A DNA stretch of 48,099 nucleotides. It comes from Bacilli bacterium (lineage in GTDB: Bacteria > Bacillota_I > Bacilli_A > RFN20 > CAG-288). The stretch covers positions 1 to 48,099 of the forward strand of contig JALEUS010000065.1 in NCBI GenBank assembly GCA_022780765.1, given 5' to 3'. Below are positions 1 to 46,286 of this stretch, one piece after another. The translations under genes and the position numbers were made by a program. How positions within the stretch are numbered: the stretch's first letter is position 1; each line of letters starts with the position of its first letter. Under the pieces are notes generated by a model. It ran no database searches. It saw only the letters and a list, made by a program, of their open reading frames with translations, and was not told the origin of the DNA.

Positions 1-57
1 TGGTGCACTAGACAGGACTCGAACCTGCACGCTGTTCCCACGTGATCCTAAGTCTCG
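1..57 (-). pseudogene. Partial tRNA-Leu(UAG)-like 3' segment (anticodon loop through T-arm, acceptor 3' strand and CCA); no matching 5' half
   Basis: The reverse complement ends ...GACTTAGGATCACGTGGGAACAGCGTGCAGGTTCGAGTCCTGTCTAGTGCACCA. Positions 1-31 are identical to 13485-13515, the 3' end of the intact tRNA-Leu. Positions 32-57 are a diverged copy with a 1-nt indel. No GCACTAG acceptor 5' strand lies upstream. Confidence 0.6.
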
Positions 58-372
58 AGTAGAGGCTTTTCTTGGACTCTTTGTAGAGCCTTAGAATTGC
101 CTGAAGTCTCGATACAATCGACATTTTCTCGTAATGGCGCAAGTCTAGAGCAGACTGTCTTAGACCGCGTTCCACTGCAATTTGCGGGCACTTTTTCGGG
201 GATTTTCCCATGTCCGCAGTTTCGGAAGACGGCTTTTCGGGCGTTTCTACCAACGCAAGGTGCCACCGCTTTTGAGGTGTGGGGAGAGAGGCTATAGCCA
301 GTTAGGAACGGCCTCCGCTCCTACTTATATTATAGTGTTTCATTTGGATTATTGCAATCTAATGAAACAATG

Positions 373-1797
373 TCAATGAATGTTCCTGCAATCCACCTCA
401 TACACAACGATTCGGTCGCCGATGTTTTCTATGGGTCGCCCATGTAGTTCCCTTAGGTAAAAACCGTTGACTTTCAGCTGGTATTCTTGTGGCAGATCCA
501 CATCAGCCAAACATAGATTCTTGCCGTTGGTTCTCAAATCACCGATTTGAATGTCTTGTCCCCCATTGAAGAGAAAGACTCTCAGTATCTGGCAAGTAGT
601 TTGCCGAAGTTTCCTGTCATCAAACCGCGAGCCCTTCACCGTCCATTTGACATCGTGGCTGCGATAAAGGGAGACTGCGTTCTCGAGCGAGCCTGGTATG
701 GTGTCCCGCATGTTCTTGTAAGCAACCCAGCTATTGAAGATACGGCTTTCGAATTTCTCTTTCTTGGTGAGCCTAGAATCGATGATTTTGTAAGTGACTT
801 CCACGATTCTGAGACAATAGAAATGCATGATTGCAATGGCGAAATCATCCATCGCCTTCAGGACATCCCAGTATCGATTTCTGTTTTTAAGACATGCGCG
901 TTGAAGAAGGAGCAGAGTCGAGAACATCATGTCGAGCGTGAATGTCTTCCTAACGCCATACTGCTCATAGATGTCGTAAAGGCAGAATCCGTGATACCAT
1001 GCGTTTCTTAGCTCAATCAGCTTCTCTTCGTCATTTACGGAATCGAAGAGGTAAGAAGCCTTATCCGTTACTTCGCGGAAGCTAACGTAATCTGACTTGG
1101 CATAATGAAGATTCAAGGTGTCTTTCTCGAAGCCGAAGAAAACCTTCGAAAGCGTTGTCTGCAGCGTCAGGTTCATATAATTGATGGCGTTTTTCCCGAT
1201 TCCCTCGGGGTAGGAATAAGTCGGCTTGCCCCTTCTGCATTTCTCCTGAAAGGTCTTCTCCACCTTGATTTGAAAATCGTTCAGTTCTTTGCCTGAGCCG
1301 ACGTGAAGCCGAAGGATTTTCGAGGTGAAGAAATTCACGGCGAACGGCCAAACCGAAATCATGTTTGAGAGAAGGGCCACGACATGGAAAGCCCCATAGA
1401 GGGTCAGTTCGTCGCCTTTGGTAATGGGAAAGAACGGCCTGACAACCGAGGAGAGGGAAAGAGCCATCGCATCATTCACGTATATCGGATCGTTGGCATA
1501 TAGATGGGCGTTGTCATTCCGAATCAGAAGGAAAATCTGCATCAAATGGTTGAATTGGCTCAGATTGAGCGAAGAGAGACTTGGGTAATAGTGGAGCACC
1601 AAAGATAACTGATCTTCGTTCAACTCTGTCCGGATATCAATATCAAGAGTCATCCTAAAGAATCTATCTATCTCGGCGCACTTTCCTATGAAGGCCGTCT
1701 TGCAGGCGATAACGGGTTCCGTGATCATCGAATATGACCTTCGGAACGTCTCTTCCGGGAACAGCAAATCATTTCGCATCAATGGTATTATCCTCAC
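373..1797 (-). CDS. Two-HEPN-motif protein (putative RNase effector) with a beta-rich C-terminal domain
   Basis: 474-aa ORF. Two Rx4H motifs: LIRNDNAHL (R93-H98, nt 1504-1521, codons checked by hand) and ELRNAWYHG (R264-H269, nt 991-1008). The track start is a GTG with no RBS. ATG at 1779, preceded by GAGGA, is the likelier start. It is the last gene of the operon, 6 nt after the methyltransferase stop. Confidence 0.7.
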   Translation of the reverse strand: MRIIPLMRNDLLFPEETFRRSYSMITEPVIACKTAFIGKCAEIDRFFRMTLDIDIRTELNEDQLSLVLHYYPSLSSLNLSQFNHLMQIFLLIRNDNAHLYANDPIYVNDAMALSLSSVVRPFFPITKGDELTLYGAFHVVALLSNMISVWPFAVNFFTSKILRLHVGSGKELNDFQIKVEKTFQEKCRRGKPTYSYPEGIGKNAINYMNLTLQTTLSKVFFGFEKDTLNLHYAKSDYVSFREVTDKASYLFDSVNDEEKLIELRNAWYHGFCLYDIYEQYGVRKTFTLDMMFSTLLLLQRACLKNRNRYWDVLKAMDDFAIAIMHFYCLRIVEVTYKIIDSRLTKKEKFESRIFNSWVAYKNMRDTIPGSLENAVSLYRSHDVKWTVKGSRFDDRKLRQTTCQILRVFLFNGGQDIQIGDLRTNGKNLCLADVDLPQEYQLKVNGFYLRELHGRPIENIGDRIVVYEVDCRNIH

Positions 1798-1803
1798 AGC
1801 AAT

Positions 1804-4260
1804 TCATTCGAAGGCATAAGGAACATCTCTCAACTCCAGCCTTTTGGAAGTTACCTTCCGGCAGATATCGCTTTCGGAATTGGAGACGAGAAGAAAGGTT
1901 CTATTTCCGCCGTCATCGGCATTCAGCGCATAGACGGCCTCGCCGACCGTCCCGCTTCCAGCGAAGAAATCAGCGACGATGGAATCCTTTTTCGTCGTCG
2001 CCCTAGCCAACTCTTCCATGAGCTTGACCGGCTTCGGCGTGGAGAAATATGCCCTATCGCCGAATATATCTTTCATCTCATCCTTGGCGGAGGAGGTCGT
2101 GCCGAAGCAATCGAATGTCTCCGGAAAATCAGCCCATCTCTCCTTGAGAGAGGCTTCTTCTATATAAGGCTGCTTTATCTTGCCGAACACCGCTTCATCT
2201 GAATTTCGGCAGATGATGATGTATTCGTAAGTCGTTTGCTTCTTATTGGGGTTGAGCACAACCCTGTTTGCGTCGAAATAGGGATGGATCTTCTTCCAGC
2301 AATGGACGGTCACAAGCTCCCTCCCGAAGATTGAAACGCAGAGCTTTTCCAACTCGTCTTTCTCCCCCTCATCGATGTTGATGATAAGGAATCCCCGCTC
2401 GCTGAGGAGATTCTTGGCCAGAAGAAGCCTTTCTCTCATGAAGGAAGCCCATCCTCCATTGAAACCAGCGTCCTTGTATCCGATATAAGGAATGTCCGAG
2501 TTATAGGGAGGGTCGATCAGGATGGAATCGACTTTGCCCTTATAGGCATCCTGCCATCCTTTTAATGAATAGAGATTCTCCGACTCAATGAGCCAGTTGC
2601 TCCGACGTTTCCTAGTAACTATCTTGGCTGGGGTGTTCTCCGCAATGTTCTTGTCTAGGTAGGTATCTTTATAGACCGAGATCTCTTTCAGCGAGGAGCA
2701 ATGGGCGAAGGCCCACTCCCCAACATAGGTAACCCAATCGGGGATGAAGGCTCTTTTTAAAGAAGCGCAGTTTGTGAAGCAGCTTTTTCCGATGCTAGAG
2801 ACGTTTTTGAGATCGATGGAGGTCATCTTATCGCATCCTGAGAATGCGCCTCTCTCCAAGGCATTCACCGATTCGGGCATCATGAAATCCCATGCCGCTT
2901 TGTTTCTCGGGCAGCAGATGATCTTAGTCTTATCTTTGTTGAATAGGATTCCTTTTTCCACTACAAAATTAGGGCTTTTCGATTCGAACTCGACGTCCCC
3001 GCATTGGACGAAGGGGTTGTAGCCGACGTCCTCCAGGCTTTTTGGGAAGACGATCTTCCTGATCCCCTTGCAGGAGAAGAAGGAATTCCGACAGATCCTT
3101 TTCGTCCCTTCCTTGATTTTCAGCTCATCTGCTTCTGCTGAACATAGGCACCCCACTACCTCGTTCTTGCTGGAATATACGACAGGGCCATCCACCTCGT
3201 AGGCGGGACTGTGGTTATCAAGATGGAGGGAGATACACCCTGAGAAAGGGAAGTTCTTGATGTGGATCAAGGATGAAGGGATATGGATGAGGGTCAGTTT
3301 CTCGCAGCGGTAGAACGCGTGCTTCCCTATCAGCTTTACCCCGTCGGGGATGGCATATTCCCCTTCTTTTCTGGGGTCGCAGTAAATAACGCTGTCCTTT
3401 TTTGAGATGAGCACCCCGTCTTTGTAATTGAAATAAGGCGACTCGCATTTCAAGATGAGATTTGGGCAGCCCGCGAAGGGGTTATCCCCCATGACTCTGA
3501 CGTTTCTCCCGATTGTAAACCGTTTAAGATTGTGGCAGTTGTAGAAAAGGTCGCCCCCGATCTCCTCCAGGCTATCGGGGCAGATCACCTCCTCTATCTC
3601 CTGATTGTCCCAGAAGATGCCGGAGCAGATTTTTCTAACACCGCCGGGCAGAACGGCGACTTTCTCTTTTCCAAAATAGGATACCGCCTCATCGCCCTGA
3701 ATCTCAAAGCCGTTCGCCTTCCTAGGTGCTGGAAGAACTGACAACCGGACTTCCCCTGCCCGGCTTTCGAAGAAGCCTCGGTCATAGGTATCGCCATCGC
3801 CGTTGAGGATAATCTCCTTCCTGTCGATGAGGCCGCTATATAGCCTTGAGGAATAGAGGATTGAGAGATACGTGCCTTTCTTTTTGGGTATAGGAAGGCT
3901 ATCTTTCTCCATCTTCTGGCCCCACTCCACGCAGCGGATATAGGCGTTCTGGCAGTAGACATCGAATTCGTTCTCGACGTCGATGGTGATGGAAGAAGGC
4001 TTATATCCAAGCTCCAGAAGCCTGTCAACGCACTCGAGGACGACGAAGGACTTATGGCTATTCAGAAAAAGGGAATCGCCCCCAACAACGGAGACGCCCG
4101 AAAAATAGGTGGCCTTCCCCTCTAATGCATAGATTCTGCAGATGGTGTCAGCGTAATCTTTCACGAAGACATCGGGCTCCTCTTCGATGAACCCCAAAGC
4201 CCAATAGAGGGCGAGGTATTTCATGTCGCGGGTGATGCGGCTATCGATGATATTCTTCAT
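1804..4260 (-). CDS. Fusion protein: unknown N-terminal domain + BspA-type leucine-rich repeats (LRR_5-like) + C-terminal beta-class N6A/N4C DNA methyltransferase
   Basis: 818 aa. Residues ~205-530 repeat the pattern IPxxVxxIGxxAFxxCxxL (for example AIPDGVKLIGKHAFYRCEKLTLIHIPSSL and VNALERGAFSGCDKMTSIDLKNVSSIGKSCFTNCASLKRAFIP). Motif IV is ILIDPPYNS (DPPY = residues 583-586, nt 2503-2514, checked). STPKPVKL and motif I FFAGSGTVG (765-773) follow. The order IV then I indicates a beta class, Mod-like enzyme. Confidence 0.8.
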   Translation of the reverse strand: MKNIIDSRITRDMKYLALYWALGFIEEEPDVFVKDYADTICRIYALEGKATYFSGVSVVGGDSLFLNSHKSFVVLECVDRLLELGYKPSSITIDVENEFDVYCQNAYIRCVEWGQKMEKDSLPIPKKKGTYLSILYSSRLYSGLIDRKEIILNGDGDTYDRGFFESRAGEVRLSVLPAPRKANGFEIQGDEAVSYFGKEKVAVLPGGVRKICSGIFWDNQEIEEVICPDSLEEIGGDLFYNCHNLKRFTIGRNVRVMGDNPFAGCPNLILKCESPYFNYKDGVLISKKDSVIYCDPRKEGEYAIPDGVKLIGKHAFYRCEKLTLIHIPSSLIHIKNFPFSGCISLHLDNHSPAYEVDGPVVYSSKNEVVGCLCSAEADELKIKEGTKRICRNSFFSCKGIRKIVFPKSLEDVGYNPFVQCGDVEFESKSPNFVVEKGILFNKDKTKIICCPRNKAAWDFMMPESVNALERGAFSGCDKMTSIDLKNVSSIGKSCFTNCASLKRAFIPDWVTYVGEWAFAHCSSLKEISVYKDTYLDKNIAENTPAKIVTRKRRSNWLIESENLYSLKGWQDAYKGKVDSILIDPPYNSDIPYIGYKDAGFNGGWASFMRERLLLAKNLLSERGFLIINIDEGEKDELEKLCVSIFGRELVTVHCWKKIHPYFDANRVVLNPNKKQTTYEYIIICRNSDEAVFGKIKQPYIEEASLKERWADFPETFDCFGTTSSAKDEMKDIFGDRAYFSTPKPVKLMEELARATTKKDSIVADFFAGSGTVGEAVYALNADDGGNRTFLLVSNSESDICRKVTSKRLELRDVPYAFE

Positions 4261-4263
4261 CCT

Positions 4264-4890
4264 TCACTCACTCTCCTTTGGGTAGCGGACGAATTCCGCC
4301 ACTTCGCCCTTCTTTTTCATGATTTCCGCATACCTCTCCAAAATCACTTCGGCGATGGCCTCGGGGCTCAGACCATCGGTCTCAATCCACAGGGTCTCGA
4401 AGCTTTTTTCTTTGCAGAATCTCTCCATTTTTGAGTAAATCAAAGGGGATTTCTGTACTTTCCTGAGGTCATTATCATGGGCGTCTCTCCCCTGAAGCCT
4501 TTTTTGGATGGTTTTCGGCTTTGCGTGGAGGATGATGGTCAACGTCGGCTTGTCGAGCTTCTCGATCAGGAAGTCGTAGACGTCCATGTTGTAGTAGGTG
4601 CCCGACCAGGCGTAGTTGGAGCATAGATGCCGGTCAGTGACGATGTTCTCATCCCTGTGCTTCCCGTACATGTATACGGAGCCCAAGCCATAGAAAAGCG
4701 AGGTGAAATCCCGGTCGGGGCTCGCGTTCACCTTGTCGCGGATCCGGATGTATTCCTCGAAGGAGTCACCTTCATCGAATAGCTCATGGAGCGGCTTCTC
4801 GATGAAGAGATAGCCGAGCTTATCCGCAACAAGCCTCGCCGTGGTCGTCTTCCCGACACCGTCGAATCCCTCAATTGATAAATGGTTCAT
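4264..4890 (-). CDS. Thymidylate-kinase-family (dNMP kinase-like) P-loop kinase
   Basis: 208 aa. N-terminal IEGFDGVGKTT P-loop and a TDRHLCSNYAW (DRxxxSxxAY-like) motif are typical of Tmk/dNK-fold kinases. It overlaps the upstream gene by 20 nt. Confidence 0.7.
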   Translation of the reverse strand: MNHLSIEGFDGVGKTTTARLVADKLGYLFIEKPLHELFDEGDSFEEYIRIRDKVNASPDRDFTSLFYGLGSVYMYGKHRDENIVTDRHLCSNYAWSGTYYNMDVYDFLIEKLDKPTLTIILHAKPKTIQKRLQGRDAHDNDLRKVQKSPLIYSKMERFCKEKSFETLWIETDGLSPEAIAEVILERYAEIMKKKGEVAEFVRYPKESE

Positions 4891-5440
4891 TTCTGTTTTT
4901 CTCCTTGAGCTCGATCATCTGATCCAGAGTCACCGGCCTGAATCCGGTGACGTCAACTCCGCAGTTATAGGCCGATTTGTCGGCATAATACTCTTTGATC
5001 TGTCTATACGCCCTGCCGTTTAGGGTCTCCATCTTGTTGTGGATGTGCCCGTAGACGAGCATCCCGTTCCGGTTGAACTCCATCCAGTCCATGATGGGAT
5101 AATGGCAAAGGCACACCTTCCTCTTATTGTCATCTATGAGCGTGATAAAATTGATGGTTTCGAACAATCCGGAATTTCTGTACTCTTCCAAATGGCCATA
5201 GTCATGGTTCCCGATGATGAGGTTCTTCCTTCCTTTCATGGTCTTCAAAACCGAAACCGAATCGAATGCCTCATCCCCGGTGAGATCCCCCAATAGCCAT
5301 ACCGTGTCTTCTTCTTTGACGATGGCGTTCCAATTTGAGGCGATGGCATCCTTCATTTCGTTGAGGTCTTTGAATGGCCTCGAGCATTTCTTGAAGACCT
5401 TGCTGTCCCCCAAATGCAGGTCAGAGATGTAATAGATCAT
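4871..5440 (-). CDS. Calcineurin-like metallophosphoesterase
   Basis: 189 aa with the ordered motifs DLHLGD, GDL, GNHD and GHIH. The start abuts the nrdD stop (5441). Confidence 0.8.
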   Translation of the reverse strand: MIYYISDLHLGDSKVFKKCSRPFKDLNEMKDAIASNWNAIVKEEDTVWLLGDLTGDEAFDSVSVLKTMKGRKNLIIGNHDYGHLEEYRNSGLFETINFITLIDDNKRKVCLCHYPIMDWMEFNRNGMLVYGHIHNKMETLNGRAYRQIKEYYADKSAYNCGVDVTGFRPVTLDQMIELKEKNRNEPFIN

Positions 5441-7144
5441 CTAGTTCCCCCTCCTGTTCTTCACTTCCGCCTTCTTCCCGTCAGTGAATCCGTCTAGAAT
5501 CTCAAGATACCCAGATACCCTCCGAATCCTCGTGATGTCCTTCGAATGGCAAGTCGGGCACTCATCGAAGACGCCCGTTGTCCCGCAATGGTTGCAGATG
5601 TCCTTCGGGAAGTTGATTCCTAGGTAATGGACGCCAGAGTTCGTGGCTATCTCGACCAGCTCATCCAGTCCTTCATCATTGTCGAGAGGGGCTTCGTTCA
5701 GCTCGATATAGGAGATGGATCCACCGTTGCAGAAGACATGGAACAGTCCTTCAGTCTGGAGCTTTTTATAGGCAGGGAGCCCCGAATCGACGTCCACGTG
5801 GAAGGAATTCGTGTAATAGCCCTTGGAGAAGATGTCGCACTGAGGTTCGAAGAGCTTGGAGTCGATCTTGGTGAAACGGCCGCTGATGAGCTCCCCGCTG
5901 GTGGCCAGAAGCGAGAAATTGAGTTTGTATTCCCTTCTCAGGAAATCGCAGTATTCCCTCATGTACTTCACGAATCCGAGGGCGTACATGTAGGTCTCCT
6001 GGTCGCTCCAGTATTTCCTCCCGGAAAGCACCTCCATGGCCTCGCTCAATCCGATGAAGCCGATGGACAAAGTCCCATGCTTGAAGACGTCGGCGAGGGA
6101 ATCGGCCTTGCTGAAATCCTCACACCACATCTTGTAGTGGACGTTCTCCGGGAAGTCATCCGCTTTGTGGGCGCAGACTTTCTTGTAGCGGTCCAGAAGG
6201 ATATCCTTCGTGACTGAGGCGATGTCGGCCCACCTTTTTCTGAAGGTTTCCATCTTCTCCTCGAGGGAGGATGAGCGGTATTCCTTGTCGATTTCCAGCG
6301 CGATTCTAGAGAGATTTATGGAAATATTGTCGATGTTTCCTCTTCCGATTGCGCCATTTTTGCCATATAGGTCATCCACCACCCTCGTCCGGCAGCCCAT
6401 GATGGAAAGAAGTCTCGGGTCGGTGTTTCTATCCTCCTCGCAGTCGCAGAGGAGATAGGTCGGAATCATCTTCTTGGCGGTGACCTTCAAAGAGAGGACG
6501 AGGAGATCGTAGTTCCTGTCCCCCGGATATCTATTCACCCCTTTGTAGACTTTGAAGACGATGTTCGGTTTGTAGACGAGATCTCCCGCATCGCGGAAAT
6601 TCTCGATCGTCGCTCTTGCGATGTATCTAGCGAGATCCGTGTCGGCTAAGCCAAGATTGAGGGTCACGTAATAGCTGGTGAGCCCCATCCTGGTGTGGTT
6701 GTTGTTGCACCAGAGGATGAATTCTCTGATGGTCCAAGAAAGGATCTCGAGAGACGCCTCATCCTTGGAATCGAATCCCAACTTGGTGAGAATATCCGCT
6801 AAGTCGCAGTCCCAGTTGGCGAACGCCATGCCGCCACTTTGCTCGTTGCCATAGTCCTCCACCATCGCCTCGAAGTATTGGATAATGGAGATTGGAAGTT
6901 GCCTGGATTTCTTCCCCTTGAAATGCTCATAGTCGAAATGGGAGAGGTCGAAGGTGATGCAGTTGTATGTCTGCCCGTAGGCGTCGAGGTCATGGATGTG
7001 GATATAGCCTTCCTCATGGAGCTTTGACCATCCTTTTGGGAGGGATTTGAGGACCTCTCCTTTGAAAAGCCTTTCTCCCAGCGTGTAGTTATCGCCAACG
7101 TAGCTCGTGCGGTTCGCGGCGTTCTCGTTATTTGTCTGTTTCAT
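5441..7144 (-). CDS. nrdD: Anaerobic ribonucleoside-triphosphate reductase (class III RNR, short form)
   Basis: 567 aa. N-terminal EEGYIHIHDLD. C-terminal Zn ribbon CNHCG...CPTC followed by the glycyl-radical motif RIRRVSGYL. Confidence 0.9.
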   Translation of the reverse strand: MKQTNNENAANRTSYVGDNYTLGERLFKGEVLKSLPKGWSKLHEEGYIHIHDLDAYGQTYNCITFDLSHFDYEHFKGKKSRQLPISIIQYFEAMVEDYGNEQSGGMAFANWDCDLADILTKLGFDSKDEASLEILSWTIREFILWCNNNHTRMGLTSYYVTLNLGLADTDLARYIARATIENFRDAGDLVYKPNIVFKVYKGVNRYPGDRNYDLLVLSLKVTAKKMIPTYLLCDCEEDRNTDPRLLSIMGCRTRVVDDLYGKNGAIGRGNIDNISINLSRIALEIDKEYRSSSLEEKMETFRKRWADIASVTKDILLDRYKKVCAHKADDFPENVHYKMWCEDFSKADSLADVFKHGTLSIGFIGLSEAMEVLSGRKYWSDQETYMYALGFVKYMREYCDFLRREYKLNFSLLATSGELISGRFTKIDSKLFEPQCDIFSKGYYTNSFHVDVDSGLPAYKKLQTEGLFHVFCNGGSISYIELNEAPLDNDEGLDELVEIATNSGVHYLGINFPKDICNHCGTTGVFDECPTCHSKDITRIRRVSGYLEILDGFTDGKKAEVKNRRGN

Positions 7145-7150
7145 TTTCTT

Positions 7151-7594
7151 TCACCTCAGTTTCTCGAAGACCTGGTTCGTGGATCCGACGTAAGGCGTCG
7201 TCGTGGTCTTCTTCTCGTTGATGAAGGGGCCGTATTTCAAATAATTGATGTTTTCTAGGATTTCCTGCGGAACTTCTTCTTTCTGATGCCCCGTGTACAA
7301 AGCAATGTCGAAGCCTTTTTCCTTCAGCTTTTTGATGAGAATTATCAGGGCTTCTTTCTGATACAGAGGCTCCCCTCCGGTCAGAGTCACTTTCTTATTG
7401 ATGGATTTCCGCTCGAGTTCCTCGATTAGGGAGTCGATGTCCATCTTTTTGCCGTTCCTGATATCCCAGGTCCAGGGATTCTGGCAGAACGGGCAATGGA
7501 GGTCGCAGCCCTGGAGGAAGACCAAGGTCCTGATGCCCGGCCCATCGACGAGGCTTCGGTTGTACACGACGGTATTGATGAAAACCTTGTTCAT
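7151..7594 (-). CDS. nrdG: Anaerobic RNR activating radical-SAM protein
   Basis: 147 aa. GPGIRTLVFLQGCDLHCPFCQNP carries the CxxxCxxC radical-SAM cluster motif. It lies directly upstream of nrdD. Confidence 0.9.
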   Translation of the reverse strand: MNKVFINTVVYNRSLVDGPGIRTLVFLQGCDLHCPFCQNPWTWDIRNGKKMDIDSLIEELERKSINKKVTLTGGEPLYQKEALIILIKKLKEKGFDIALYTGHQKEEVPQEILENINYLKYGPFINEKKTTTTPYVGSTNQVFEKLR

Positions 7595-8031
7595 GCCATC
7601 ACCTCCTCTATCTCTGATATGTCGTAGTCATCAAGAACGGGAGCGAATCTTTCGCGGTACTTCCACTCCCTGTATTTCGGCAAAAGAGAACTCTTGTTGT
7701 ATTTATTATAAACCATAGGCCCCTGCTCGTCTTTCTTGACCTGATTCTCTATTTCCGGATGCTCCCTCTGCTCTTGGATGTTCTTGCAATAGAGATAGGG
7801 GTTTCCCTCGTTCTCTTCATTGAGTTCTTGATATTCTTCCTCCGATATTTCCTTGCAGGACAGCACGGCGTCTTTGCGGTCATGCTTCACCCTGGGGAAA
7901 TATCGGGCCATCAGCGCGGCCTCTTTGCCGTTTCTTGCTCTCACGGCGAACGGGATTGGGATGTAGTGCTTCCTCCCTACGTGCCCACATTTGCAGATGA
8001 CTTTGTAGAACCTGATTTTCTTGTTTTTCAT
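7591..8031 (-). CDS. Hypothetical protein with an N-terminal CxCGH Zn-ribbon-like motif and an acidic C-terminus
   Basis: 146-aa ORF. AAGGAGGG RBS before the ATG at 8031. ATGA start/stop overlap with nrdG. No family recognised. Confidence 0.6.
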   Translation of the reverse strand: MKNKKIRFYKVICKCGHVGRKHYIPIPFAVRARNGKEAALMARYFPRVKHDRKDAVLSCKEISEEEYQELNEENEGNPYLYCKNIQEQREHPEIENQVKKDEQGPMVYNKYNKSSLLPKYREWKYRERFAPVLDDYDISEIEEVMA

Positions 8032-8120: not shown

Positions 8121-8330
8121 TCATTCGAGAAAGAGGTCGCGGACGTCGCATTCGAAGATATTCGCGATTTGGACTAGAAGGCGATAGTCGGTGACTCCGT
8201 TCTTCAGCCATTTGCGGATGGTCCTTTCCTCATAGCCCATCTTCTCAGCGAAGTCGGATTGAGTGAGGCCCTTCTCCTTGATGCGAGTCCTGATCCGCTC
8301 CCCGTTGTTCGGGACAGCTGACTGCGTCAT
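8121..8330 (-). CDS. XRE-family helix-turn-helix transcriptional regulator
   Basis: 69 aa. IKEKGLTQSDFAEKMGYEERTIRKWLKNG is a typical Cro/C1 HTH. AAGGAGGA RBS lies 7 nt before the ATG. Confidence 0.85.
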   Translation of the reverse strand: MTQSAVPNNGERIRTRIKEKGLTQSDFAEKMGYEERTIRKWLKNGVTDYRLLVQIANIFECDVRDLFLE

Positions 8331-8448: not shown

Positions 8449-9363
8449 TTATTTCGTCAGCTTGTCGATGATTTTGTTGGAAATCGTGTTGACGGCATCG
8501 ACGACGGACTTGGCGTCCGAGAGAGCCTCAGCGCCCTCTTCGACGTAATGAGGCGTGTCGCTCACCGCTTTTTTCGCCTTGGCGATGTATTCTTTGAATT
8601 TGTCTTCTCCGCAAATGGTGTCCCCCACCGCCATGGATAAGGCTCTGTTCTCTTTCACCGCCTCCTCCAGGCTCAGCAGCATGTCGAACGCTTTGTTGAG
8701 CTTGGCCTCCAAGGAATTGATCTTGATGTCCTTCAAGGCGTTGATTTCCTGGAACAGGGCCGAATTCTCCTCCTCAAGCTCATGGTATTGGACTTGGCCC
8801 CTTTGAATCACCTCCTGGAAATTCCTGACCTGGTCGGCAGTGAGCTGGTTCTTCTCCAAAAGGGCTTTAACTTCATCTTTCAAGCCTTCCGCCTCTTCTT
8901 TCAGCCGCTTGTTTTCTTTCTCCGTCAGGTCGAAAATCCCGGCAAAAAAGGTTTCGTCGTACTCATTTTCCGCCTTAATCCCCATGTAATCCGCATAGGG
9001 CTTCGAGGTTTTCCAATAGACCTTCATGTAATTCGTCACGATGTCGACAGAAACGTTCTTCTCCCGATGGTGCTTGTGTTTGTTCACCTTCTGCGTGTAA
9101 TCCGAAAGTTTGCCGTAGGTGGCCTCGTCCAGGCGAAGCATCCCCATCATCACCACTTTCATCTCGTCCTTCCGGATGAGCTTCCCGCAGGTCGTCCCCT
9201 CTTCATAAGGCACGTTGAAATCGTCGGCGATCTGCTTCAAGGTCTCCTCCAGCAGATCCAAATAGGAGTCATAGAAAGAATTCGAAGCTCCTTTGATGTT
9301 TCGGATAACGGTCTGGTAACGGTTCGCTATCGGCTCTCCCAAAAGTGATATGTACTCAAGCAT
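8449..9363 (-). CDS. Coiled-coil protein with an N-terminal globular domain of unknown function
   Basis: The ORF extends to 9402, but ATG at 9363 (MLEYISLLGE) overlaps the upstream stop by 8 nt (ATGCTTGA) and is the likely start. Residues ~150-250 are heptad-rich (KRLKEEAEGLKDEVKALLEKNQL...EEENSALFQEINALKD). Confidence 0.65.
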   Translation of the reverse strand: MLEYISLLGEPIANRYQTVIRNIKGASNSFYDSYLDLLEETLKQIADDFNVPYEEGTTCGKLIRKDEMKVVMMGMLRLDEATYGKLSDYTQKVNKHKHHREKNVSVDIVTNYMKVYWKTSKPYADYMGIKAENEYDETFFAGIFDLTEKENKRLKEEAEGLKDEVKALLEKNQLTADQVRNFQEVIQRGQVQYHELEEENSALFQEINALKDIKINSLEAKLNKAFDMLLSLEEAVKENRALSMAVGDTICGEDKFKEYIAKAKKAVSDTPHYVEEGAEALSDAKSVVDAVNTISNKIIDKLTK

Positions 9364-10648
9364 GTTTCTCCCCCATTCTTTGCATGAACGCAATGGTCTC
9401 ATTCATGTATTCATTGGCTTTCGCCCGATCCAGATTAGGCAGGTTTTCGAAATAATAGGCTTCCTTCCTGCAGAAATCGTTTCGCGGGACCGCGTATCCG
9501 TTTTCGCTCAGCAAATCACTCAGCTTACGATAGTCCTTGCGCGGTTTCCCTAGGCAAAGATATGTCCCTAAAGATCTGAGGACGCGGGAGCTTTCCCCAA
9601 AGCCAAGGAGGCTGTCAATTCTGTCCATGTTAAGAACGTTGAAGTAAATGACATCCTCTTTTTCCAAGTCGACGATGTCATAGATGTATTCGTCATTGGG
9701 GTCCTTTTCGCCCCTCATCGCCTTCTCCAAGTCGACGTATCGGCTTCGGTTTTTCTTCACGATGCCTTTGTTTTGGAACCCCGAAGGCCAGATGTCAGGC
9801 TTGCTCATACCTAGCATTCTATCCTCAGCTTCGTCAAAAAGGCGATAAAACGGGTCGACCAGCACGAGGGTCCTGCTCGGCGTCAGCGGAGTGAAATAGA
9901 AGTTGGCGCCGACGTTATCCTCGTTGAGGATCAGCTTCAGGATATTGGCCTTTTCTTCATCGCTTTTGGTTTTCTTCAGCAAAGAAAGGTAATAGCCTGT
10001 CTTAATCAGCTCCTGGCCATAATCCCCATAAAATCTGGACGGATCGTGCTCGCAGACCATCCCGATGTCGGATATGACGAAGTCTTCTCCGCACTTCTTG
10101 GAATCCCAAATGGAGAAATAGCAGCTGTTGAATACCCTGGTCCATTTTTGGGCGACGAAGGTGGCGTTTTCCTTGTCGGCCCATTTGTATTCATCATCGC
10201 TCTCCAAGATGGAAAGCAGCGTCTGCTTGAGGTATTCCTCATCTGACAGTTCTTCTTCAACCGGGTGAATTTTGAACATCCTGTCGAGATAATAATGTTT
10301 GCCGAGTTTATGAAAGACAGACCTCTGATGATTGATGTAATTGACGGCAACTGGAGTTCTGAGCATCTCAAGGGAAAAGAATCTTTTCAGAAGCATGAGC
10401 TCTCTTCTCGTCAAAGTGACGGTGCCCTCAGCGTTGATGATTTTGTTAAAGAGGATGTTGGCCACCCTGCTTTCTGCGTTTTGGTTGAAAAGCTTCTCCA
10501 AACTCTCCTCGTAAAGCTTCGTCGAGCAAAAGATTTTATCGGGCTTTTTTCGCTCTAGAATCCCTTCTTTGAGATCAAAGATGTTGATCCTTTCGCCGAA
10601 TCTATTGACGATGAACCGAGGGACATAGTGGTTGTTCTCATACGCCAT
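9356..10648 (-). CDS. DUF4238-type protein with a C-terminal extension
   Basis: 430 aa. The N-terminus MAYENNHYVPRFIVNRF matches the HYVPxFYLxxF signature I associate with Pfam DUF4238. The start overlaps the recombinase stop by 11 nt. Confidence 0.6.
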   Translation of the reverse strand: MAYENNHYVPRFIVNRFGERINIFDLKEGILERKKPDKIFCSTKLYEESLEKLFNQNAESRVANILFNKIINAEGTVTLTRRELMLLKRFFSLEMLRTPVAVNYINHQRSVFHKLGKHYYLDRMFKIHPVEEELSDEEYLKQTLLSILESDDEYKWADKENATFVAQKWTRVFNSCYFSIWDSKKCGEDFVISDIGMVCEHDPSRFYGDYGQELIKTGYYLSLLKKTKSDEEKANILKLILNEDNVGANFYFTPLTPSRTLVLVDPFYRLFDEAEDRMLGMSKPDIWPSGFQNKGIVKKNRSRYVDLEKAMRGEKDPNDEYIYDIVDLEKEDVIYFNVLNMDRIDSLLGFGESSRVLRSLGTYLCLGKPRKDYRKLSDLLSENGYAVPRNDFCRKEAYYFENLPNLDRAKANEYMNETIAFMQRMGEKHA

Positions 10649-11591: not shown

Positions 11592-12476
11592 CTAGTTTCC
11601 GTAGTCGATGAATACATACCTATCGTGGCATCTTCCGTCAAACCGCTTGAACGAGATATCGATGTCGGGGTATTCGGCCTTGAAATCATTCAGCAGCCTT
11701 TGCGTCAATGTGTCCCTGTTCCTTAGGTTGTCGCTTATGACCGTTATCTCAGCACCATTCTTCGCGGAGCGGAGCAGCTCCAAGATCTTCAGGAAGAGAT
11801 AGGAATCGACGACGATGATGGAATATTCTGCCGTTTTGTATATCTTCTGGTAAGCCTCGTCGGCTTCCACCCTCTCGCCGTCGAGGATGAGGAAATGCTC
11901 CATTGGAGGATAGTACGTGAAGCTGTCCACCACTTTCCGGAGGTCCTCCTTGGTTGCCATCTTATCCTCTATTGTCGAGAACCTGCCACCGAGCGAGCGG
12001 ATGCCCTCGCTGTTTTAATGTGTCTCGTTCACCAACTGAAGGATCTCCTTCGAGCCGATGAGTTCGTGGTTCTCGGCGATGTAGTTCTTCTTCGACTTGA
12101 TGACGCGAATGAGTGCAACGGATTGCTTAGTCGCGAGATCGCCTTTGAGGACAGTCATCAGCATGTAGATCCCCTGCTCAGTATAGGCAAAAGGCAGATA
12201 TCTAGTCCCACCCCAACTTGTGGTGCCATTTTGTCACCTCAAGGTCGAAAACTCCTCGGCAGTCAAACGAAACATGAAATCCTCAAGGAATTTTTCTTTG
12301 CACCTTTGCACCTGCCTATTCAGGTATTTCGTTTCATAGCCGTAAATCCTGGTGAGGTCAAAGTCGAGCATGACTTTCTGTCCTCTGATGACGTAGATCT
12401 CGCCTCTGATGATGTCCTCGTTGATGACCGCAGGCGCCATCGGCTCATTTGCCTTCTTTTCCGTTCCGTCATCCAT
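11592..12476 (-). pseudogene. ORF6N/KilA-N-like DNA-binding protein gene interrupted by two in-frame stop codons
   Basis: Three track ORFs share one frame. IYVIRGQKVMLDFDLTRIYGYETKYLNRQVQRCKEKFLEDFMFRLTAEEFSTLR is followed by TGA (12234-12236). Then QNGTTSWGGTRYLPFAYTEQG... continues to TAA (12015-12017). The frame then continues into ORF 11592-11960. The motif across the TGA matches the ORF6N consensus. Confidence 0.7.
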
Positions 12477-13484: not shown

Positions 13485-13567
13485 TGGTGCACTAGACAGG
13501 ACTCGAACCTGCACGGTTTCCCAGCGGATTCTAAGTCCGCCGCGTATACCTATTCCGCCACTAGTGC
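13485..13567 (-). tRNA. tRNA-Leu (anticodon UAG), class II with long variable arm, CCA encoded
   Basis: Hand-folded: GCACTAG/CTAGTGC acceptor (7 bp), D-arm GCG..CGC, anticodon arm GCGGA-CTTAGAA-TCCGC, variable arm TGGGAAACCGTG, T-arm CAGG-TTCGAGT-CCTG, then A-CCA. Confidence 0.85.
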
Positions 13568-13807
13568 GTGTGTGCTACTTTCTGCGGACGGATTCGTCCG
13601 CATGTCTTCTTCTACCGTCTGACCATCTTTTGGCAAGAAGAGGAACGGCTTTTCCTAATTTTACTACCCTGCGGACAACTTTTCATAGGAATTCCGGGAT
13701 TTTCTCCGGTCGGAGGTTTTGTCCGCATCTTCTTTTGTGCGCACCTTACCTCATTCTTCCCGCAGCCATGGCGTTTTCGGTTTACCATATTCTTGGAGTT
13801 TTCAAGT

Positions 13808-13846
13808 TCCTAAGTCCATAGCGTCTACCTGTTCCGCCAACCGGAC
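13808..13846 (-). pseudogene. Orphan 5' half of a tRNA-Leu(UAG)-like gene (acceptor 5' strand, D-arm, anticodon stem 5' strand and loop), truncated after the anticodon loop
   Basis: Reverse complement is GTCCGGT-T-GGCGGAACAGGTAGACGC-T-ATGGA-CTTAGGA, a near-canonical Leu tRNA 5' half. No TCCAT stem complement, T-arm or ACCGGAC acceptor strand follows. It sits exactly at the GC-rich/AT-rich junction. Confidence 0.55.
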
Positions 13847-13869
13847 AAAACATATTAATTATATATGAT

Positions 13870-14208
13870 TTACTCTTCTCTTTCAGTCTTTTTCTTTTTA
13901 GCTTTATCTTTTTTTTCCTGCACGTACTTCTCATACTGCTCTTTATTCTTCTCCATCTTCCTCATGTAATTAGAAGATAAAGCAGCGAGTGTTATCATAA
14001 TAGCTTCAAAAAACACCAGAACAGAACCGGCGACAACTAAAGGAACAGCAAAAGGTAAGGGAGTTGAATTATCTGTCGGTGTCAGATAGATAAGACCGGA
14101 AACTAAAAGAGACAGAGCAGTGATAGCTAGAATGGTCATACCGATAAGAAAATAGATGCTAGTTTTTTTTGAAAACTTAGAGATAGACTCCATAATTTTG
14201 TAAATCAT
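13870..14208 (-). CDS. Small membrane protein (two predicted TM helices, Lys-rich C-terminus)
   Basis: 112-aa AT-rich ORF. Hydrophobic stretches IYFLIGMTILAITALSLLVSGLIYL and LPFAVPLVVAGSVLVFFEAIMITLAAL. No family recognised. Confidence 0.55.
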   Translation of the reverse strand: MIYKIMESISKFSKKTSIYFLIGMTILAITALSLLVSGLIYLTPTDNSTPLPFAVPLVVAGSVLVFFEAIMITLAALSSNYMRKMEKNKEQYEKYVQEKKDKAKKKKTEREE

Positions 14209-14216
14209 AATACAAG

Positions 14217-14293
<77 letters not shown>

Positions 14294-17312: not shown

Positions 17313-17397
17313 GGGGTCGTGACGGAACTGGTAGACGTGCTAGACTCAGAATCTAGTGATTAACATCATAGGGATTCGACTTCCCTCGATCCCACCA
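17313..17397 (+). tRNA. tRNA-Leu (anticodon CAG), class II, CCA encoded
   Basis: GGGGTCG acceptor pairs with CGATCCC. Anticodon arm CTAGA-CTCAGAA-TCTAG, long variable arm, T-arm AGGGA-TTCGACT-TCCCT. An extended -10 (TGATATAAT, 17293-17301) lies upstream. Confidence 0.85.
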
Positions 17398-17408: not shown

Positions 17409-19250
17409 ATGTTCACAAAGAGTCAGAAGATTACAATATATAATCTTCTTCTCGATAGGTTTAAATTAGGACAAGAAATCACTTATGAGGAGTTATCAAC
17501 ATATCTTACTGAGAATGGATTGATAGCTTCAGAATTCGGATATGATGACTATATATCTCTTATCAATGATTTGAAAGAATTCATCGAGAAAAAGAAGATT
17601 AAAAACAAAACTATTTATTTTATTAAAAACTATGAGGAGAAAGAAGAGAAAACTTTCTTCTCAACGCAGACTAAAAAAAGTCGTTTGAAAGATAAAAGAG
17701 CTATCTCAAAAGAAAAAAACAGTCTCACAAAACTAACTGGTCATCTGGAAGTAAAAAAACAAAAAGCAGATGAAAACAAAACGACAGTATCAGACAACAA
17801 TTCAAAAAAAATAATTAAATTCACAGAAGAAGATAAAAAGAAGATCCTTTCAGTCTTAAAAAACAGATACGAGAAAAACAAGGATTATTATCTTTCTTCA
17901 GTGACACAGTACTTAGAATCACAAGGAATATATTATAAAGAATACGGCTTTAGCAAGATGAAGCTGCTGCTTTCAAAAATTAAAGAAGTCACTGTGACAG
18001 ATAAGATGATAAACAACATCCCTGTCTCATTTGTGAGATTGAACGGAAGTAAGGAAAAAGAAAAAAAAGCACCAGCTTTTAATGAGATCTATTTTCCAAA
18101 CAAACTGATATTATCTCTTCTTGAGCTCGTCTCAGAAAAATACGATGAGAAGACGATACTGCAGATAATAAACACCGACTATCTAAAATCGATAAAAGAA
18201 ACATCTTTTGATTTCTCATCTTATCAGTTTAACCTCTCTATAAAATCAAAAGATAATCAGAATCTCATCATGATAATCAGACCATCGACATCGAAAACAG
18301 AGTACAGTTTCTTTGTCTATTATGTCGGTAAAGAAAAAAGCGCAGCACCTGAAAGCCTCACAAACTACATATCCTTTATCAACTACGATAAAGAGCTTCA
18401 GAACTTAGCTCTTTTAGCAAAAAAAGAGAACTGGTTATTTAGAAATTCAAAAGACAAGTTTATTATTTTAAAAATATATCTTCAGTACACTTTCTCTAGA
18501 TTAGTAGAAGAGAAAAAGATCAGGTACAGCGATGATAAGGCGATTTTAGCTTTCAACACCGGTCTTGTCACTGACACCTACGATGACATCTATCTTGTTG
18601 CACACATCGAAGATCTCAAGCAGGAGAAATACTCATTTGATGCTTTCACCACTGCAGGACTGAACATCGAAGGAAAAATGATAGTGTCACTTGTTAATCC
18701 TCTTCCTCAAAAAGCTTCTTATTACACAGATGCTAACCAGCTTTTATTTGATGCAAAACAGGACATAGTAAGTGATTTTGATCACATTCTTTTAGATAAT
18801 ATCTCAAGGTTGCCAACACAATTCATATATGAAACAACTTCAAACAAATATATAAAGTCAATATGTAAAAAAATAGAAAAGAGCATGACTTCAAACGAGA
18901 AGAATTCTCTGTTTTTAACTTTATCAAACGAGATAAAAAAAGATTTCATTACCTACAGCAACTGCAAGTATGCGATAGAAAGAGCGATCAACTACGCTAT
19001 AAAAGAAGCAAGCTACGACTATCATATACCTCTTGCATGCTTTTATCCTTCAAGAGGAGTCATATCTCTTCTTCTTCCATTAAAGATAACTTCATACAAC
19101 AGAATAGACTGTTTCCTTCTGATTGAAAAGATGCCCTCTAATAACTATCAAGGACAGACTATACTCACTTTAAAACAGGCCTACACAAACTGTCGTCTTC
19201 TATCTCCGATGGTCTGTACTTATCTTGACTGTCAGAAGATAGATGACTAA
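17409..19250 (+). CDS. Hypothetical protein: two N-terminal OST-HTH/LOTUS-like repeats plus a DUF3825-like C-terminal domain (tentative)
   Basis: 613 aa. GGAGG RBS lies directly after the tRNA. Two similar ~60-aa modules: ITIYNLLLDRFKLGQEITYEELSTYLTENGLIASEFGYDDYISLINDLKEFIE and KKILSVLKNRYEKNKDYYLSSVTQYLESQGIYYKEYGFSKMKLLLSKIKEVTV. The domain names are from memory and not verified. Confidence 0.5.
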   Translation: MFTKSQKITIYNLLLDRFKLGQEITYEELSTYLTENGLIASEFGYDDYISLINDLKEFIEKKKIKNKTIYFIKNYEEKEEKTFFSTQTKKSRLKDKRAISKEKNSLTKLTGHLEVKKQKADENKTTVSDNNSKKIIKFTEEDKKKILSVLKNRYEKNKDYYLSSVTQYLESQGIYYKEYGFSKMKLLLSKIKEVTVTDKMINNIPVSFVRLNGSKEKEKKAPAFNEIYFPNKLILSLLELVSEKYDEKTILQIINTDYLKSIKETSFDFSSYQFNLSIKSKDNQNLIMIIRPSTSKTEYSFFVYYVGKEKSAAPESLTNYISFINYDKELQNLALLAKKENWLFRNSKDKFIILKIYLQYTFSRLVEEKKIRYSDDKAILAFNTGLVTDTYDDIYLVAHIEDLKQEKYSFDAFTTAGLNIEGKMIVSLVNPLPQKASYYTDANQLLFDAKQDIVSDFDHILLDNISRLPTQFIYETTSNKYIKSICKKIEKSMTSNEKNSLFLTLSNEIKKDFITYSNCKYAIERAINYAIKEASYDYHIPLACFYPSRGVISLLLPLKITSYNRIDCFLLIEKMPSNNYQGQTILTLKQAYTNCRLLSPMVCTYLDCQKIDD

Positions 19251-46116: not shown

Positions 46117-46193
46117 GGGTGCATAGCTCAGCTGGTTAGAGCGTTTCCTTCACACGGAAGAGGTCAACGGTTCAAATCCGCTTGCACCCACCA
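46117..46193 (+). tRNA. tRNA-Val (anticodon CAC)
   Basis: GGGTGCA/TGCACCC acceptor. Anticodon arm TTTCC-TTCACAC-GGAAG. T-loop TTCAAAT with one A-C mismatch in the T-stem. CCA encoded. Confidence 0.85.
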
Positions 46194-46210
46194 TAAGACT
46201 CTAAAAAAAT

Positions 46211-46286
46211 GCCAACGTAGCTCAGCTGGTAGAGCAACTGATTTGTAATCAGTAGGTCGCAGGTTCGGGTCCTGTCGTTGGCACCA
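46211..46286 (+). tRNA. tRNA-Thr (anticodon UGU)
   Basis: GCCAACG/CGTTGGC acceptor. Anticodon arm ACTGA-TTTGTAA-TCAGT. T-arm GCAGG-TTCGGGT-CCTGT. CCA encoded. Confidence 0.9.

Follow-up and report, generated by a model that had tools for sequence, protein, structure and literature searches.

A compact protein family of uncultured gut Bacilli with two HEPN-type motifs in one chain: a candidate stand-alone ribonuclease effector

In HEPN ribonucleases (RNases), an Rx4-6H motif lies where core helix-3 ends and the loop to helix-4 begins, the motif arginine is followed mostly by N, D or H, a second acidic residue, often within an Ex3[KR] pattern, is found upstream in helix-2, and helix-2 and helix-3 are commonly separated by an insert (PMC3710099). 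Their mechanism is metal-independent and leaves 2',3'-cyclic phosphate ends (PMC3710099). The described systems that are closest to the gene considered here include: Cas13 (type VI of the clustered regularly interspaced short palindromic repeat (CRISPR) systems, including the compact Cas13bt/Cas13X), in which two R-N-x3-H motifs of one mostly helical polypeptide form an intramolecular composite RNase site; the AbiD, AbiD1 and AbiF proteins (Abi_2, PF07751), free-standing HEPN-motif proteins that Bacilli carry on mobile DNA and that are proposed to be toxic RNases (PMC3710099); the eukaryotic, PIN-fused Swt1, whose 'dyad of HEPN domains' in one chain is described as inactive (PMC3710099); and RnlA/LsoA, HepT-MntA and Csm6/Csx1, which have an Rx4H motif and toxin or defence roles, build their site from the HEPN domains of two subunits and are under the control of an antitoxin (RnlB, MntA) or of a CARF ligand. 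Here, we analyze a minus-strand gene at positions 373 to 1,797 of contig JALEUS010000065.1 from a Candidatus Enterosoma metagenome-assembled genome (MAG); the window is the whole 48,099-nt contig. The gene encodes a protein of about 470 residues that is likely an HEPN-type RNase, and we read it, with a probability of roughly 0.55, as a stand-alone, single-chain tandem-HEPN RNase that acts as a defence or toxin effector.

A conserved family with two R-N-x3-H motifs

The open reading frame (ORF) at 373..1797(-) encodes 474 amino acids when counted from the GTG at 1797, as the first-pass annotation of this DNA had it, and residue numbers below keep this frame. A Shine-Dalgarno sequence (GAGGA) at 1795-1791 has a spacing that suits a TTG at 1782 or an ATG at 1779 better than the GTG; because it is placed correctly for these two codons, the real product is probably 469 or 468 residues long. 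Database entries of the same protein range from 451 to 474 residues. The gene upstream stops at 1804. The parts of the gene, and the DNA that follows it, are listed below together with the evidence on which each assignment is based.

373..1797 (-): candidate gene (ORF listing; Shine-Dalgarno sequence; 99%-identical copies in other samples; 85 family representatives)
1318..1719 (-): helical domain 1, proposed to be HEPN-like, residues ~27-160 (AlphaFold2 secondary structure; column composition; description in PMC3710099)
1504..1521 (-): motif 1, RNDNAH, R93-H98 (translation; conservation)
883..1290 (-): helical domain 2, proposed to be HEPN-like, residues ~170-305 (AlphaFold2 secondary structure; conservation; column composition)
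988..1008 (-): motif 2, RNAWYHG, R264-G270 (translation; conservation)
667..870 (-): helical extension with a third conserved motif, residues 310-377 (conservation; AlphaFold2)
394..651 (-): C-terminal beta-rich domain, residues 383-468 (AlphaFold2 strands; conservation; translation)
55..372 (-): non-coding spacer 3' of the gene (not conserved beside other family members)
1..54 (-): copy of the 3' part of a tRNA-Leu gene, an att-type scar (direct repeat D5, 31 exact bases; 54 nt at 89% identity)

The two motifs are the only Rx4-6H matches in the whole protein and both are of the stricter RN...H form, for which the composition of the protein predicts 0.043 matches per protein; two or more occur in just 167 of 200,000 shuffled sequences. 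Translation places motif 1 at residues 93-98 (window 1504-1521) and motif 2 at residues 264-270 (window 988-1008). The pairs R93-H98 and R264-H269 named in the first-pass annotation are therefore both real and far beyond chance.

The candidate is a member of a small, rare and unnamed family from uncultured gut Bacilli. A word-indexed search returns only three relatives (99%, 52% and 30% identity) and a word-indexed profile search recovers 4 proteins, whereas an exhaustive hidden Markov model (HMM) search of 1.84 billion cluster representatives finds 85 proteins at E <= 0.001, 72 of them at E <= 1e-10. About 40 of the 85 are full-length (455-520 residues). All come from Bacilli MAGs, and their source names are either absent or "hypothetical protein"; the GTDB representative genomes contain a single family locus, also in a Bacilli MAG.

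Conservation was counted in a 40-sequence alignment in which identity reaches down to 15%. Four positions are invariant (G135, E224, R264 and K348), and at least 90% of the sequences keep K33, R93, H98, T132, N265, H269, G270, E333, K337, R352 and F392. Both R/H pairs are among the 13 best-conserved of the 474 positions: R93, H98, N265 and G270 are each kept in 39 of the 40 sequences and H269 in 38. The family can be described by three signatures: IR[ND]xNAHL[YF] around motif 1; LRNxWFHG around motif 2; and EV[ST]YK[IL][IL]DxRL...EK...R (E333, Y336, K337, D340, K348, R352) in the helical extension at residues 310-377. The C-terminal domain conserves F392, D394, R398, I418, G419 and N444.

Predicted fold and relation to known HEPN systems

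The AlphaFold2 model built with the 40-sequence alignment has a mean predicted local distance difference test score (pLDDT) of 93.5 and a predicted template modelling score (pTM) of 0.90; a model built with 4 sequences (pLDDT 49) was unusable, and the 40-sequence model is used throughout. The N-terminal part is predicted to form helices at residues 27-50, 61-70, 79-97, 109-118, 133-143, 146-156 and 170-184. The middle part is predicted to form helices at 202-228, 240-246 and 254-268, a beta-hairpin at 276-285, and helices at 288-303, 310-339, 346-364 and 370-377. The last ~100 residues had been described as beta-rich, and the model bears this out, with strands at 383-387, 398-402, 405-410, 428-431, 454-459 and 463-468, that is, within a stretch of ~90 residues (383-468).

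Each motif lies at the position that the published description of HEPN domains would predict. In the secondary structure of the model, helix 79-97 is closed by motif 1 and followed by a loop and helix 109-118, and helix 254-268 is closed by motif 2 and followed by the hairpin and helix 288-303. Both motifs have the Rx4-6H form with a polar residue after the arginine, which is N in 39 of 40 sequences for motif 2 and mostly N or D for motif 1. Both predicted domains also have an acidic residue upstream: [DE]44 (36/40), followed after three residues by [RK]48 (28/40), in the long helix 27-50 of domain 1; and, in the long helix 202-228 of domain 2, the invariant E224, which has no basic residue at position +4. 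The motif arginine comes 49 residues after the acidic residue in domain 1 and 40 residues after it in domain 2, and a short insert helix (61-70 and 240-246, respectively) lies between the acidic and the motif helices. This placement of motifs and acidic residues, as read from the secondary structure of the model, is the strongest evidence in favour of two HEPN-like domains. When the N-terminal half is aligned with the middle part by hhalign, the best alignment registers R93 on R264.

Several results weigh against reading the family as HEPN-type defence effectors. The half-against-half alignment has an E-value of 0.01-0.1, which is non-significant and barely above reversed-column controls. Foldseek, which may be weak on short helical bundles, finds nothing at E <= 0.001 when the whole model is compared with PDB and BFVD; the best PDB hits are transporters, and Cas13bt3 (7vti_A) is at rank 3 with E 0.4, probability 0.14 and TM 0.19. 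Pfam, NCBIfam, PADLOC and PHROG profiles do not match the window protein and give only single, noise-level hits among the 40 members, of which two are related to defence or RNases, each in one member and below threshold: HEPN_Swt1 (E 0.015) and a CARF-HEPN model of PADLOC (E 0.003). Searching PDB sequences with the family profile, built from either 4 or 40 sequences, returns nothing relevant, and hhalign of the family alignment (A2) against Escherichia coli RnlA gives E 0.55 over 13 columns, which amounts to nothing. The family is also absent from the phage, plasmid and IMG/VR collections that were searched by tblastn and collection scans. Finally, some members share a recurring gene block that also encodes a MATE-like transporter, an unknown protein of 366-576 residues and a DEDDh-like exonuclease, which could indicate a different, non-defence role. 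The structure prediction and comparison that the first-pass annotation had proposed gave two results: in the model both motifs are at helix ends, as in HEPN domains, and no significant structural neighbour was found. Because there is neither a curated family match nor a significant Foldseek neighbour, the HEPN fold and the composite active site are features that we infer for this family. HEPN families are, as a rule, too divergent for sequence methods (PMC3710099).

The family can be compared with each of the systems introduced above. By architecture, Cas13 and the HEPN dyad of Swt1 are nearest, since both have two HEPN-type units in one chain; by function, the nearest analogues are AbiD and AbiF. 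As judged from profile and alignment searches and from the neighbouring genes, membership in the Cas13, Abi_2, RnlA/LsoA and HepT-MntA families fails. Unlike Cas13, the family has no CRISPR array, no conserved RNA and no match to a Cas profile (PADLOC, Pfam and NCBIfam, 40 members), the Foldseek hit to Cas13bt3 is noise, and a C-terminal beta-domain is present where Cas13 has lobes for the recognition of CRISPR RNA. The well-established Cas13 types have 775 residues or more as against ~470 in the candidate; compact 'Cas13an' effectors, however, appear to be roughly of the size of the candidate, and the earlier remark that the protein is far smaller than any Cas13 is probably outdated. The Abi_2 profile matches none of the 40 family members at E <= 1, and Abi_2 proteins are shorter, with about 300-350 residues. 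In contrast to Swt1, both motifs of the candidate family are intact, and the HEPN_Swt1 hit is at noise level. Whereas RnlA/LsoA, HepT-MntA and Csm6/Csx1 bring together HEPN domains from two subunits, the candidate has both motifs in one chain, and no MNT, RnlB or CARF partner is found beside it. Across the family loci there is no conserved small downstream partner of the RnlB/LsoB antitoxin type, and no nucleotidyltransferase domain occurs among the neighbours in the window or at the other loci. Motif 1, RNxNAHL[YF], also resembles the Rx4HxY form of HepT.

Our analysis suggests the following mechanism for a stand-alone tandem-HEPN effector. The third core helix of each of the two helical domains (residues ~27-160 and ~170-305) would end in an R-N-x3-H motif, and the two motifs would pair within one chain to form a single, metal-independent RNA-cleaving site, by analogy with characterized HEPN enzymes; cleavage at the paired site would leave 2',3'-cyclic phosphate ends (mechanism as in PMC3710099). 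The conserved basic residues of helices 310-364 (EVSYKILD...EK...R), together with the beta-domain, may bind RNA or keep the enzyme latent until it is triggered; the helical extension at 310-377 might instead line the active site. Infection would be the trigger, and the ensuing RNA cleavage would stop the cell or the phage. In this way the protein may serve as an abortive-infection or toxin-type defence effector that is carried as cargo by mobile islands in uncultured gut Bacilli. The juxtaposition of the motifs, the RNase activity, the trigger and the defence role are all inferred. A more far-reaching version, which we regard as improbable, is that the protein is a free-standing, single-chain HEPN pseudo-dimer that either invented the Cas13-type intramolecular site independently or is a relic of a pre-CRISPR ancestor, with cleavage gated by an RNA or phage ligand through the beta-domain. 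If this version were true, uncultured gut Bacilli would possess a new antiviral system made up of one gene, and the family would provide an RNase scaffold of very small size.

Genomic contexts, the adjacent spacer and alternative explanations

The contexts of the family gene are variable and rich in defence genes. No gene family is adjacent to the candidate homologue in all loci, and in most family loci (numbered L001 to L021, plus one labelled P0003) defence or toxin genes are found within 8 kb, as follows.

L021: Wadjet JetABCD
L018: AIPR
L014: LlaJI with AAA_5, Macro
L015: Macro, PARG
L017: PLD-helicase-DUF3427
L001: Fic
P0003 locus: RelB
L002 and L013: HNH

In the window, the defence-type neighbours are a DNA methyltransferase and a DUF4238 protein. 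Judged by gene content, such contexts without a universal partner fit a self-contained defence-island gene.

Some loci share further neighbours. The recurring block mentioned above is shared by several divergent family members and spans 6805-10351 in L013, 6901-11792 in L017, 4952-9557 in L014 and 6051-12517 in L018, with varying gene order. Its unknown protein (F4) has no Pfam domain, although the L014 version contains a kinase-like APH segment, and its DEDDh-like exonuclease (F7) has ~322 residues. In L021 (230-17380), the most distant family member directly follows the Wadjet JetABCD operon and a small helix-turn-helix (HTH) gene, and is followed on its 3' side by an AAA+ ATPase, a 987-residue AAA_11/12 helicase and two unknowns. 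In L007 (8001-13318), an 839-residue AAA_11/12 helicase and a 481-residue unknown come after the family gene, with overlapping ends. The L021 and L007 clusters may be multi-gene systems that use the family protein as a subunit.

The DNA on the 3' side of the candidate gene had been described as an ORF-free, hairpin-rich stretch and a possible functional partner of the protein. The first part of this description stands, since 58-372 contains only short mechanical ORFs, and the second holds to a modest degree: there is a hairpin of 9 bp at 336-344/361-369, and 39-372(-) folded as RNA is modestly more stable than shuffled sequences (z = -2.6). A promoter-like site, TTGACA-17-AATAAT with an upstream TG (11/12 matches), runs from 376 to 348 on the minus strand, directly after the stop codon. 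A second, overlapping sigma-70-like match (TTGCAA-17-TATAAT, 10/12) is found within 329-376(-), and both promoter matches face the tRNA fragment. The idea of a partner finds no support: the spacer is absent from every other family locus and runs into the 54-nt copy of the tRNA-Leu 3' part at 1-54, whose intact counterpart is the tRNA-Leu gene at 13485-13567(-). A family-linked structured RNA or antitoxin RNA in 1-700 was considered and rejected: Rfam gives nothing at E <= 10 in this region, it has no tandem repeats, and it is not conserved elsewhere. Since high-GC DNA continues past position 1 in the copies from other samples, the spacer is, on sequence comparison, best described as the junction of two tandem mobile-island modules and does not belong to the family unit; the repeated tRNA segment is probably where the contig broke. 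The absence of a repeat array reported by the first-pass annotation, and hence of a link to CRISPR, is confirmed and can be extended: neither the window nor any of ten other family loci contains a CRISPR-like or tandem repeat array, and in particular no CRISPR array lies beside the family gene in the window, L001, L002, L007, L009, L010 or L013.

These observations bear on three other explanations. The protein could be something other than an HEPN RNase, its R...H pairs serving some other chemistry, or no more than structure or binding, within a helical fold that is new; the likeness to HEPN would then be confined to the motifs. The missing profile and structural matches to any HEPN family and the non-significant internal repeat would be expected in that case, and the strong conservation of K33, T132, G135, E333, K337, K348 and R352 outside the motifs would also find a place. 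However, each motif matches RN-x3-H exactly and shows the published HEPN placement (helix end, polar residue after R, acidic residue ~40-50 residues upstream), and HEPN families are in any event beyond the reach of sequence methods (PMC3710099); we consider a non-HEPN protein unlikely. The idea of a Cas13-like RNA-guided or RNA-gated nuclease, as an ancestral or degenerate orphan that works with an unrecognized non-coding RNA, for example from 58-372, draws on the two HEPN-type motifs in one chain, on the promoter-like site after the stop codon, on a spacer that folds somewhat better than shuffles and on the non-significant rank of Cas13bt3 in the Foldseek list. It is highly improbable in view of the absence of repeats, of Cas profile matches and of Rfam matches, and of the lack of conservation of the spacer. 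Moreover, in L013, L017 and the P0003 locus the family gene touches or overlaps the genes beside it, and in several loci it abuts both neighbours, so that no space is left there for an RNA gene.

The third explanation keeps the HEPN-type RNase and changes its role: the protein would form one part of modules of several genes, or would process or turn over RNA in these reduced-genome Bacilli, and would act together with its recurrent neighbours F4, the DEDDh-like exonuclease, superfamily 1 (SF1) helicases and AAA+ ATPases. In L013 and L017, F4 directly precedes the family gene, the stop codon of the one overlapping or abutting the start codon of the other, and the same two loci contain the exonuclease; F4 is also nearby in L014, L015 and L018, and the P0003 locus has an RNase_T gene. 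The family gene is followed by an AAA_11/AAA_12 helicase gene in L007 and L021, AAA+ ATPases are present in L018 and L021, and five distinct loci have a MATE-like protein next to the gene or close by. Yet none of these partners occurs in the window, L001 or L002, gene order and strand differ among the loci, the likeness of the helicases and AAA+ proteins is limited to the ATPase core (29-30% identity), and the MATE-like gene may be a mere chromosomal anchor beside a variable hotspot. Such a role is, on balance, rather unlikely, and a stand-alone effector remains our preferred reading.

The island in the window and its significance

Housekeeping genes fill 14-48 kb of the window, and the cluster mates of its LigA and MnmG proteins bear the name Candidatus Enterosoma, whereas positions 1 to ~13,500 are foreign, with a GC content of 0.45-0.52 as against 0.29-0.41 elsewhere in the window. 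This region is bounded by the intact tRNA-Leu gene and by its 54-nt 3' copy, and every gene found in it is on the minus strand. The main genes are the following.

373-1797 (-): candidate gene
1804-4260 (-): 818-residue LRR_5/N6_N4-methyltransferase fusion, which ends 6 nt before the candidate
4264-4890 (-): thymidylate-kinase-like protein
4871-5440 (-): metallophosphoesterase
5441-7144 (-): NrdD
7151-7594 (-): NrdG-like radical-SAM activase
8121-8330 (-): HTH regulator
9356-10648 (-): DUF4238 protein, 430 residues
10638-11252 (-): small serine recombinase (invertase/resolvase), 204 residues

In the fusion protein directly upstream of the candidate, an N6/N4 DNA methyltransferase domain is joined to leucine-rich repeats of the BspA type (LRR_5), and we know of no described function for such a fusion; LRR_5 proteins are also found 3' of the distant family member in L014-L016. 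The genes at 4264-8031(-) form a phage-like nucleotide-metabolism block (the thymidylate-kinase-like protein, the metallophosphoesterase, NrdD, the NrdG-like activase and a 146-residue unknown) in which no phage structural genes are present. The DUF4238 gene overlaps the start of a gene for a 317-residue unknown (8449-9402) and the end of the serine recombinase gene, and may be another defence-type cargo gene. No integrase is found next to the tRNA gene in 11.3-13.5 kb, where there are only short ORFs, among them a truncated ORF6N/KilA-N-like fragment (12234-12476(-)), and noise-level hits; the serine invertase/resolvase is the sole recombinase of the island. The element may thus be decayed or mobilized in trans.

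Near-identical copies of the island are present in other samples, in which the candidate protein is 99% identical; the copies differ by 2 synonymous and 2 non-synonymous changes, too few for a ratio of non-synonymous to synonymous substitution rates. In three of these samples (L005, L019 and L020) the high-GC DNA extends ~5-6 kb beyond window position 1 and encodes an AAA_14 ATPase, an oleate hydratase, a TetR regulator and gene fragments, after which the GC content drops to the host level. Five tRNA genes of the window are found in 13485-14293, 17313-17397 and 46117-46286 (Leu-tag, Arg-cct, Leu-cag, Val-cac and Thr-tgt), and a gene for a 613-residue OST-HTH/DUF3825 protein (17409-19250) adjoins tRNA-Leu-cag.

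New HEPN families are unsurprising per se; this one is compact, unusually arranged and confidently modelled. To our knowledge, the defence systems of RF39-type gut Bacilli are almost unexplored, and the members of the family are known only from metagenome assemblies. Should the HEPN reading fail, what is left is a strongly conserved and well-folded protein for which PDB contains no structural neighbour. If the HEPN reading holds, the family would be an uncurated HEPN family with an unusual layout, in which two catalytic motifs and a beta-domain are contained in a chain of ~470 residues. The defence repertoire would gain an RNase effector encoded by one gene, and the family would offer a small comparison point for the origin of Cas13-like intramolecular HEPN sites.

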